64,000 nucleotides of DNA from Escherichia phage vB_EcoM_PTE-Eco15, in the sequence record PQ352352.2. The stretch is one strand, 5' to 3'. This document shows, one piece after another, positions 37,062 to 37,865 of the stretch (the first letter of the stretch is position 1; every line of letters begins with the position of its first letter). Below the pieces are notes generated by a model. It saw only the letters and a list, made by a program, of their open reading frames with translations. It was not told the origin of the DNA and made no database searches. A program made the translations under genes and the position numbers.

Positions 37062-37401
37062 AATTTTGGTTTTATGTATAGGATTAATTTCATTTTCTGC
37101 TTCTGCGTTAGCAGATACATCATATACTGAAATTAGAGAATATGTAAACCGTACTGCCGCGGATTATTGCGGGAAAAATAAAGCATGCCAAGCTGAATTT
37201 GCGCAGAAATTAATATATGCATATAAAGACGGAGAAAGAGATAAATCAAGCAGATATAAAAATGATACATTGTTAAAACGATATGCTAAAAAGTGGAATA
37301 CCTTAGAATGTTCAGTTGCGGAGGAAAAAGATAAAGCCGCTTGTCATTCAATGGTTGACCGTTTGGTAGATTCTTATAATCGAGGATTGAGTACTAGATG
37401 A
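37054..37401 (+). CDS. Small secreted Cys-containing protein; positional equivalent of T4 vs
   Basis: 115 aa (T4 Vs is 115 aa); N-terminal signal-peptide-like segment; four Cys. Confidence 0.45.
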   Translation: MTKILVLCIGLISFSASALADTSYTEIREYVNRTAADYCGKNKACQAEFAQKLIYAYKDGERDKSSRYKNDTLLKRYAKKWNTLECSVAEEKDKAACHSMVDRLVDSYNRGLSTR

Positions 37402-37865
37402 TTGTAAAATATATCAAGGGCGATATTGTCGCCCTTTTCGCTGAAGGTAAAAATATTGCGCATGGATGTAATTGTTTTCACGCGATGAAAGCTGGAGTCG
37501 CAGGTCAATTAACCAAAGCTTTCCCTAAAATTTTGGAAGCTGATAAATTACAGACTGAATGGGGTGATGTAACTAAACTTGGTTCTTATTCAGTCTATGA
37601 AAAATACTTTAGGACTCATAAAGCTTACTGCTTCAATCTTTATACTCAATTTCAACCAGGGCCAAATTTTGAGTATTCCGCTTTAATGAATTGTATGTTA
37701 GAATTAAATGAGTTTGGTGAAAATAAACTGATTAAACCTACAATCTATATGCCTAGGATTGGTGCAGGCATAGGTAAAGGGAACTGGGATATTATTGAGG
37801 GGATTTTAGATACGTATTCTACTAAACTAGAAATTGTGATTGTTGATTGGGAACCGTTATTATGA
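37398..37865 (+). CDS. Macrodomain-like protein (putative ADP-ribose binding/hydrolysing)
   Basis: 155 aa; YIKGDIV...IAHGCN...KAGVAGQL...PRIGAGIGKGNW resemble macrodomain motifs. Confidence 0.5.
   Translation: MIVKYIKGDIVALFAEGKNIAHGCNCFHAMKAGVAGQLTKAFPKILEADKLQTEWGDVTKLGSYSVYEKYFRTHKAYCFNLYTQFQPGPNFEYSALMNCMLELNEFGENKLIKPTIYMPRIGAGIGKGNWDIIEGILDTYSTKLEIVIVDWEPLL

Follow-up and report, generated by a model that had tools for sequence, protein, structure and literature searches.

The toxin DarT2 ADP-ribosylates thymidine in single-stranded DNA, which results in a block of replication (PMC11825919). According to the HIDEN-SEQ preprint (bioRxiv 10.1101/2025.11.20.689424), a transposon library of phage T4 grown on E. 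coli carrying DarTG2 lost insertions in one gene, tk.4, and a clean tk.4 knockout rendered T4 sensitive to DarTG2. On a plain K-12 host the gene was dispensable, its importance appearing in the presence of DarTG2 only. It was named adfM (anti-DarT factor Macrodomain), the resemblance of its product to the structure of the DarG macrodomain of M. tuberculosis was noted, and on the grounds of homology it was suggested that the removal of ADP-ribose from DNA by T4 AdfM “seems likely”. These genetic data refer to the T4 allele and were published ahead of peer review; no biochemical assay of any protein of the Tk.4 family was found in the literature covered. The name AdfM has also been given to gp104 of phage PhiKZ (Cell Rep 2026, PMC13309987), likewise a phage-encoded single macrodomain countering DarTG2, which in vitro strips the DarT2-made ADP-ribose from a TNTC oligonucleotide.

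The relevant chemistry has been studied in cellular macrodomains. SCO6735 of S. coelicolor, which lacks the catalytic lysine, outpaces DarG and TARG1 in clearing thymidine-linked ADP-ribose from DNA modified by DarT, and it protects E. coli as well as S. coelicolor against the toxin (PMC9411070). The activity of SCO6735 is lost upon the Q85A and Q85E substitutions, the Q85A variant being dead on ADP-ribosylated DNA as well as on the protein substrate, and it has been proposed that the glutamine places the distal ribose while the thymine is protonated by a backbone-held water (PMC9411070). Human TARG1 also strips thymidine-linked ADP-ribose from DNA (PMC9411070; PMC13036486).

Identity and genomic setting of tk.4

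The window analysed here is a 64,000-nucleotide stretch of the genome of Escherichia phage vB_EcoM_PTE-Eco15 (record PQ352352.2). Its 36000-39300 region matched 819 records of the phage collection by megablast, the best matches being Tequatroviruses with 98-99% identity, including slur03 and AR1; the window is that of a Tequatrovirus. The initial annotation had drawn attention to a 155-aa ORF in the vs-tk interval, and this ORF, which starts with ATG and occupies positions 37398..37865 of the + strand (stop codon within the range), was found in the ORF listing and confirmed as real. Since the ORFs of the window correspond one to one with the AR1 and T4 genes of the regB-tk block, arranged in both phages in the order regB - vs.1 - vs - tk.4 - tk.3 - ... 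- tk, the ORF is tk.4, located between vs and tk.3. A tblastn comparison with T4 Tk.4 (AF158101.6 60925-61389, minus strand) gave 97.4% identity over all 155 residues of two proteins of equal length that differ at four positions, and for the flanking regB, vs.1, vs, tk.3 and tk the identity to T4 amounts to 98.6-100%. The near-identical sequence and the syntenic locus, with vs and tk.3 as shared flanks, mark the gene as the ortholog of T4 tk.4 (adfM), and it is virtually certain that it is this ortholog and that it encodes a macrodomain.

The macrodomain nature and the function of tk.4 are thus already known, the gene having been annotated before and named adfM in the 2025 preprint. “Macro domain protein” is its existing label in many GenBank records, RefSeq and PHROG 335 call it “phosphatase”, and the JGI label reads “O-acetyl-ADP-ribose deacetylase”. 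The origin of the “phosphatase” label is Poa1p, the ADP-ribose-1''-phosphate phosphatase of yeast (6LFQ). A name inherited in this way from Poa1p/Appr-1-p carries no evidential weight, and it needs replacing in RefSeq and PHROGs.

The start codon of tk.4 overlaps the stop codon of vs in an ATGA (37398..37401, + strand), as read from the sequence and the ORF coordinates, and a second ATGA (37862..37865, + strand) joins the stop codon of tk.4 to the start of tk.3, the latter being placed by mapping the AR1 annotation onto the window. Judged by these overlaps, tk.4 is probably coupled in translation to both neighbours. Its transcription would proceed within the regB-vs-tk block of early/middle genes. 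The best + strand promoter site, a weak sigma-70-like match (TTTACT-17-TATAAT with an upstream TG) before regB at 35991..36019, is a possible start of a regB-vs.1-vs-tk.4-...-tk transcription unit, but a weak candidate, and the yield of the promoter and terminator scan of 35200-39400 did not exceed that of shuffled sequence. At 37416-37436 (codons 7-13), a perfect hairpin of 8 bp coincides with a minus-strand terminator-like match; with a z of -1.35 in its 86-nt context it is not exceptional, and no function is claimed for it. When the whole window was scanned with Rfam, no RNA family turned up within the ORF or close to it, the only hit being the tRNA cluster. The minus-strand ORFs that overlap tk.4 (37374..37508 and 37745..38038) are unannotated in AR1, PP01 and T4.

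Fold, class and conserved residues of Tk.4

The initial annotation had assigned the protein to the macrodomains on the basis of MacroD-style motif resemblance. The motifs quoted in it are all present (YIKGDIV at residues 5-11, IAHGCN at 20-25, KAGVAGQL at 31-38 and PRIGAGIGKGNW at 119-130), and the assignment is established independently by the Pfam profile, by homology to solved structures and by the predicted fold. The Pfam Macro model PF01661 matches residues 22-132 (model positions 2-113 of 118) with 24.3 bits and an E-value of 3.2e-5, above its gathering score of 22. In the PDB, a single-sequence search yielded Bt_1257 (9e-9) and also Poa1p, SCO6735, TARG1/OARD1 and the DarG macrodomains, and a profile built from 44 members of the Tk.4 family matched Bt_1257 (1.6e-21), SCO6735 (3.8e-18), TARG1 (8.7e-17), Poa1p (2.5e-16) and the DarG of M. 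tuberculosis (5.7e-14) and T. aquaticus (8e-13). Structure prediction, which had been named as a check, gave the three-layer alpha/beta/alpha macro fold, with human TARG1/OARD1 (4J5R/4J5S) as the best Foldseek match (1.2e-9). Tk.4 is accordingly a one-domain macrodomain of the ALC1-like (TARG1-like) class, because its nearest neighbours in sequence and structure are TARG1, DarG, SCO6735 and Bt_1257 and not the MacroD, viral or PARG types, a point concealed by the MacroD analogy.

Models of DarG match Tk.4 over the macro part alone (PADLOC, 1.8e-7; NCBIfam, 1.4e-5). Membership in the DarG equivalog NF048014 was considered and rejected, as the score of 24.5 bits falls far short of the cut-off (250) and the match covers only model positions 2-144 of 338. 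The 155-aa Tk.4 also has neither Lys80 nor the C-terminal DarT-binding domain of DarG, and no darT gene is adjacent, the neighbours being regB, vs.1 and vs upstream and tk.3...tk downstream.

Residues of Tk.4 were compared with those of the solved relatives and of PhiKZ gp104 in profile and MAFFT alignments, and conservation was counted among 108 members of the Tk.4 family. YIKGDIV (codons 5-11; 37410..37430, + strand) makes up the first beta-strand together with the turn at Gly8-Asp9. The counterpart of Asp9 in TARG1 is Asp20, and the KGD triplet is common to TARG1, SCO6735 and Bt_1257; of the 108 members, 105 have a glycine at position 8 and 106 have D or N at position 9. In macrodomains, the aspartate at this position has a role in contacting the adenine. 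The next segment, IAHGCNCFHAMKAGVAG (codons 20-36; 37455..37505, + strand), comprises strand 2 and the predicted ADP-ribose-binding loop 1. It holds the conserved His22 (105/108), Asn25 (107/108), Gly33 and Ala35 (both 108/108), and Gly23 is conserved as well. Asn25 shares its column with the conserved asparagine of DarG and N23 of PhiKZ gp104; in gp104, replacement of N23 by alanine reduces DNA de-ADP-ribosylation (PMC13309987).

The column of the catalytic lysine is that of the last residue of NLYTQ (codons 80-84; 37635..37649, + strand). In this column TARG1 (K84), DarG of T. aquaticus (K80) and gp104 (within FPTK) have a lysine, the catalytic one in TARG1 and DarG, and SCO6735 (Gln85) and Bt_1257 have a glutamine. 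Tk.4 has Gln84, which occurs in all 108 family members inside the N-L-Y-T-Q motif. The predicted ADP-ribose diphosphate-binding loop 2, PRIGAGIGKGNW (codons 119-130; 37752..37787, + strand), corresponds to PRIGCGLDRLQW in TARG1 and to PRIGCGLAGGTW in SCO6735; Pro119 and Gly122 are invariant in the family, Gly124 is present in 107 members and Trp130 in 101. Gly126 occupies the position of Asp125 of TARG1. With Gln84 and Gly126 at the two positions concerned, the Lys/Asp dyad of the TARG1 type is absent from Tk.4. Both predicted ADP-ribose-binding loops are glycine-rich, the first glycine of loop 1 being replaced by Lys31 in the allele of the window.

Proposed function and its alternatives

The initial annotation had suggested that a phage macrodomain of this kind could reverse ADP-ribosylation by the host, and this suggestion has found its counterpart in the published genetics, in which T4 tk.4 was needed on the DarTG2 host and the knockout was sensitised (bioRxiv 10.1101/2025.11.20.689424). 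An anti-DarTG2 function of the T4 ortholog is therefore very likely. The best overall explanation of the data, which we regard as likely, is that Tk.4 is a counter-defence ALC1-like macrodomain removing thymidine-linked ADP-ribose from phage DNA. In such a scheme the host DarT2 would add ADP-ribose to thymidines of single-stranded phage DNA and block its replication; Tk.4 would hold the ADP-ribose in the cleft that separates loop 1 (residues 28-36) from loop 2 (residues 119-130) and cut the ribose-thymine bond, so that unmodified DNA would be regained. By this reasoning we infer that Tk.4 hydrolyses thymidine-linked ADP-ribose on DNA.

As for the chemistry, the SCO6735-like route seems the most likely one for Tk.4, because the lysine of DarG and TARG1 is missing and Gln84 is invariant. 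Gln84 would then orient the distal ribose, and the chemistry would fall to a bound water, as proposed for SCO6735, in place of a lysine-dependent route. By analogy with that enzyme, a catalytic removal of thymidine-linked ADP-ribose through a glutamine-type mechanism appears fairly likely. One must bear in mind, however, that Tk.4 lacks the catalytic lysine of DarG and TARG1, the aspartate of TARG1, and the long lysine-bearing loop of SCO6735 with its Val/Ile25, and that it has a near-neutral pI, all of which count against the proposed function.

Protection from DarTG2 may also be partly non-enzymatic, since SCO6735 and DarG inhibit DarT by direct binding (PMC9411070). Taken further, Tk.4 might act mainly in a stoichiometric manner, through binding to DarT2 or masking of the DNA targeted by the toxin, the cleft serving for recognition only. 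The catalytically dead SCO6735 Q85A, DarG K80A and TARG1 K84A all inhibit DarT in vitro, SCO6735 most strongly (PMC9411070), and the absence of the canonical catalytic lysine from Tk.4 would fit such a role. Nevertheless, Gln84, Asn25 and the loop glycines are invariant or nearly so in 108 diverse members, many of which belong to phages infecting unrelated hosts, and conservation of this breadth favours an active site over a surface matched to a particular toxin. Tk.4 also has no counterpart of the C-terminal domain by which DarG binds DarT. A mainly stoichiometric action is thus considered unlikely.

The removal of ADP-ribose from DNA may likewise be one activity among several, as relatives of Tk.4 act on ADP-ribose linked to protein and to uracil in RNA, and the substrate range of Tk.4 may exceed DNA accordingly. 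It could even be supposed that the main substrate is an ADP-ribosylated protein (Glu/Asp-linked, or a product of Alt, ModA or ModB) or uracil-linked RNA, with DarTG2 resistance being one facet of a wider function. SCO6735 and TARG1 are active on protein as well as DNA (PMC9411070), TARG1, DarG and SCO6735 take ADP-ribose off uracil in single-stranded RNA (PMC13036486), and phages of the T4 type possess ADP-ribosyltransferases of their own (discussed in PMC9503650). Yet tk.4 is dispensable on plain K-12 and becomes important with DarTG2 only, which speaks against this alternative and leaves it rather improbable. The modifications made by Alt and the Mod enzymes are, moreover, on arginine, a linkage that, to our knowledge, ALC1-like macrodomains do not cleave.

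A housekeeping enzyme acting on small molecules, either a Poa1p-like ADP-ribose-1''-phosphate phosphatase or an O-acetyl-ADP-ribose deacetylase, is what the database names would suggest, but these names are inherited and not based on assays. The sole reported phenotype of tk.4 is specific to DarTG2, the column of Ser30 of Poa1p holds Ala29 in the Tk.4 of the window, and we know of no tRNA-splicing route producing ADP-ribose-1''-phosphate in T4 infection of E. coli. Such an enzyme is therefore most improbable. The degradation or sequestration of NAD-derived immune signals (e.g. gcADPR of Thoeris) or of toxic ADP-ribose derivatives, which the initial annotation had also entertained and which Iyer et al. 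2022 favour for phage Macro domains in general, gained no support here or in the literature found, since it has no experimental link to Tk.4, the nearest relatives belong to the class of DNA and protein erasers and not to the signal-binding macro domains, and the sole tk.4 phenotype was obtained in the preprint on a DarTG2 host, so that this reading can practically be set aside.

Allele diversity and comparison with named macrodomains

The Tk.4 family is widespread among phages. It was detected by tblastn in 2,731 of 50,697 phage records, among them 2,404 with a query coverage of 80% or more, and the hosts of these phages include Escherichia, Klebsiella, Salmonella, Pseudomonas, Vibrio, Acinetobacter and Aeromonas. 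A large protein database holds 110 clusters of the family, and the neighbours in BFVD are phage “macro domain-containing” proteins, including that encoded by tk.4 of Acinetobacter phage 133.

Three of the four substitutions that separate the protein of the window from T4 Tk.4 fall in loop 1 (T29A, G31K and S32A). They lie within a patch of 22 nt (37481..37502, + strand) that contains 11 nucleotide differences and turns HTMGSGVA of T4 into HAMKAGVA, the rest of the gene being ~98% identical to that of T4; to judge by this distribution, the patch looks like a short recombination patch. A glycine stands at position 31 in 84 of the 108 members and in each of the aligned solved references, and hence the activity of the allele of the window, with its G31K, T29A and S32A substitutions, is not guaranteed. 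Lys31 is tolerated, as it is found again in seven further full-length clusters, of which one comprises 122 sequences, and DarG, SCO6735 and Bt_1257 carry a loop lysine one position later (G-K-G), from which it follows that a lysine in loop 1 may serve contacts with DNA or the diphosphate. We infer that the variant allele retains activity. The Tequatrovirus PP01 carries at the same locus a tk.4 allele of only 55% identity between flanks that are highly similar to those of the window (98-100% for regB, vs.1, vs and tk; 94% for tk.3). The divergence runs from about 37436 to the stop codon of tk.4, the swap being confined to the ORF. Such allele turnover is typical of anti-defence genes, and the natural tk.4 alleles, that of the window included, represent ready-made variants of the substrate-binding loop.

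It may be speculated, though the idea is a tentative one, that the Tk.4 family (NLYTQ / AHGCNC / PxIGAGIAGGDW) constitutes a third branch of the ALC1-like macrodomains, distinct and carried mostly by phages, that it joins the glutamine site of SCO6735 to a short loop as in TARG1 and DarG, that its recruitment against DarT2 took place separately from that of the DarG-derived AdfM of PhiKZ, and that its allele turnover (the 55% cassette and the Lys31 patch) reflects ongoing selection by host ADP-ribosyltransferases. If this were true, selection could change the substrate range (thymidine-linked ADP-ribose on DNA, uracil-linked ADP-ribose on RNA, protein) or the evasion or binding of the toxin.

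That tk.4 accounts for the natural DarTG2 resistance of T4-type phages, and that it adds another free-standing phage enzyme of the antitoxin type reversing the chemistry of a toxin, is already in the literature. What remains to be added is small and concerns the active site of glutamine type, the fact that the two proteins called AdfM are not orthologs, and the alleles found in nature (loop-1 patch and cassette). An enzyme of this type in T4 would nevertheless provide a small and genetically tractable model for the poorly understood lysine-independent de-ADP-ribosylation of bases.

Compared with the named macrodomains, Tk.4 is closest in sequence and structure to SCO6735 (5E3B) and Bt_1257 (2FG1/2AFC), with which it shares the glutamine in the position of the DarG/TARG1 lysine and the absence of the TARG1 aspartate. 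It differs from both in that their “mobile loop”, which is 5-6 residues longer and bears Lys89, is absent and in that Gly23 replaces their Val/Ile25. The elongated mobile loop and Val/Ile25 are the features by which the SCO6735 subclass was defined, and in SCO6735 they are tied to high activity on DNA (PMC9411070). The calculated pI also differs (6.3 for Tk.4 and 9.5 for SCO6735), and SCO6735 and Bt_1257 are cellular proteins, whereas tk.4 is a phage counter-defence gene. TARG1/OARD1 has a short mobile loop, as does Tk.4, but its dyad Lys84/Asp125 corresponds to Gln84/Gly126 in Tk.4, and the DarG macrodomains of T. aquaticus (5M31/5M3E) and M. tuberculosis (5M3I) have the catalytic Lys80 in place of Gln84. 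Judging from the alignments, Tk.4 looks like a third flavour, with a glutamine active site and a loop of TARG1 length. Orthology with PhiKZ gp104 was rejected, since BLASTP aligned 23 residues only (E 0.019) and gp104 is DarG-like, with the FPTK lysine present and a match of 9.4e-25 to the DarG of M. tuberculosis (5M3I). The proteins of T4-type phages and of PhiKZ stem from different ALC1-like branches, which implies independent recruitment, and the one name AdfM is borne by two macrodomain lineages.

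A divergent allele of tk.4

The macrodomain gene tk.4 (window 37398-37865, plus strand), which lies between vs and tk.3, is represented at the same locus of phage PP01 and some other Tequatroviruses by an allele that is just ~55% identical to that of the window, whereas the identity between the window and PP01 reaches 98-100% for the flanking genes regB, vs.1, vs and tk, and 94% for tk.3. When compared with positions 2001-2480 of the PP01 locus, the divergent block occupies about 37436-37858 of the window. Since the divergence begins past codon 13 and stops at the tk.4 stop codon, the allele swap does not extend beyond the tk.4 ORF. 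The point at which the match with the PP01 allele is lost coincides exactly with a perfect 8-bp inverted repeat (AAGGGCGATATTGTCGCCCTT; 37416-37436) located inside codons 7-13. A minus-strand terminator-like site was flagged at this repeat by the promoter/terminator scan; folding of the repeat in an 86-nt context gave a z-score of just -1.35.

Differences from T4 in the substrate-binding loop

Outside a single stretch of 22 nt, the tk.4 gene of the window is ~98% identical to that of T4. This stretch (codons 29-35; 37481-37502) contains 11 nucleotide differences and looks like a short recombination patch within the substrate-binding loop of Tk.4. As a result of T29A, G31K and S32A replacements, loop 1, the ADP-ribose-binding loop, reads HAMKAGVA in place of the HTMGSGVA of the genetically tested T4 allele. 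Position 31 is occupied by glycine in 84 of the 108 aligned family members, as well as in every aligned solved reference macrodomain.

Other genes of the window

The small-ORF content of the interval between tk.3 and tk (38065-38632) is unlike that of T4. As in AR1 and PP01, two additional small ORFs, matching ar1_114 and ar1_113, are found between tk.3 and tk.2, at a place where tk.2 and tk.1 come directly in T4. Further upstream, a 120-aa ORF with the end ...RVSGYAV... (34867-35229) is the counterpart of vs.6, a gene for which the AR1 annotation gives the product as autonomous glycyl radical cofactor. The Rfam scan of the whole window also revealed a plus-strand cluster of eight tRNA genes in the T4-type tRNA region (25569-26924).

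Names given to tk.4 and its orthologs

The tk.4 family is labelled "phosphatase" in RefSeq and PHROG 335, and "O-acetyl-ADP-ribose deacetylase (regulator of RNase III)" by JGI. Both labels were carried over from distant macrodomains, and neither fits the sole reported tk.4 phenotype, the sensitisation of a T4 knockout to DarTG2 (bioRxiv 10.1101/2025.11.20.689424). The name AdfM (anti-DarT factor Macrodomain) has in turn been given in two papers to non-orthologous proteins, PhiKZ gp104 and T4 Tk.4. The former resembles DarG and carries its catalytic Lys, whereas T4 Tk.4 is of the Gln type and is scarcely alignable with PhiKZ gp104 by BLASTP.
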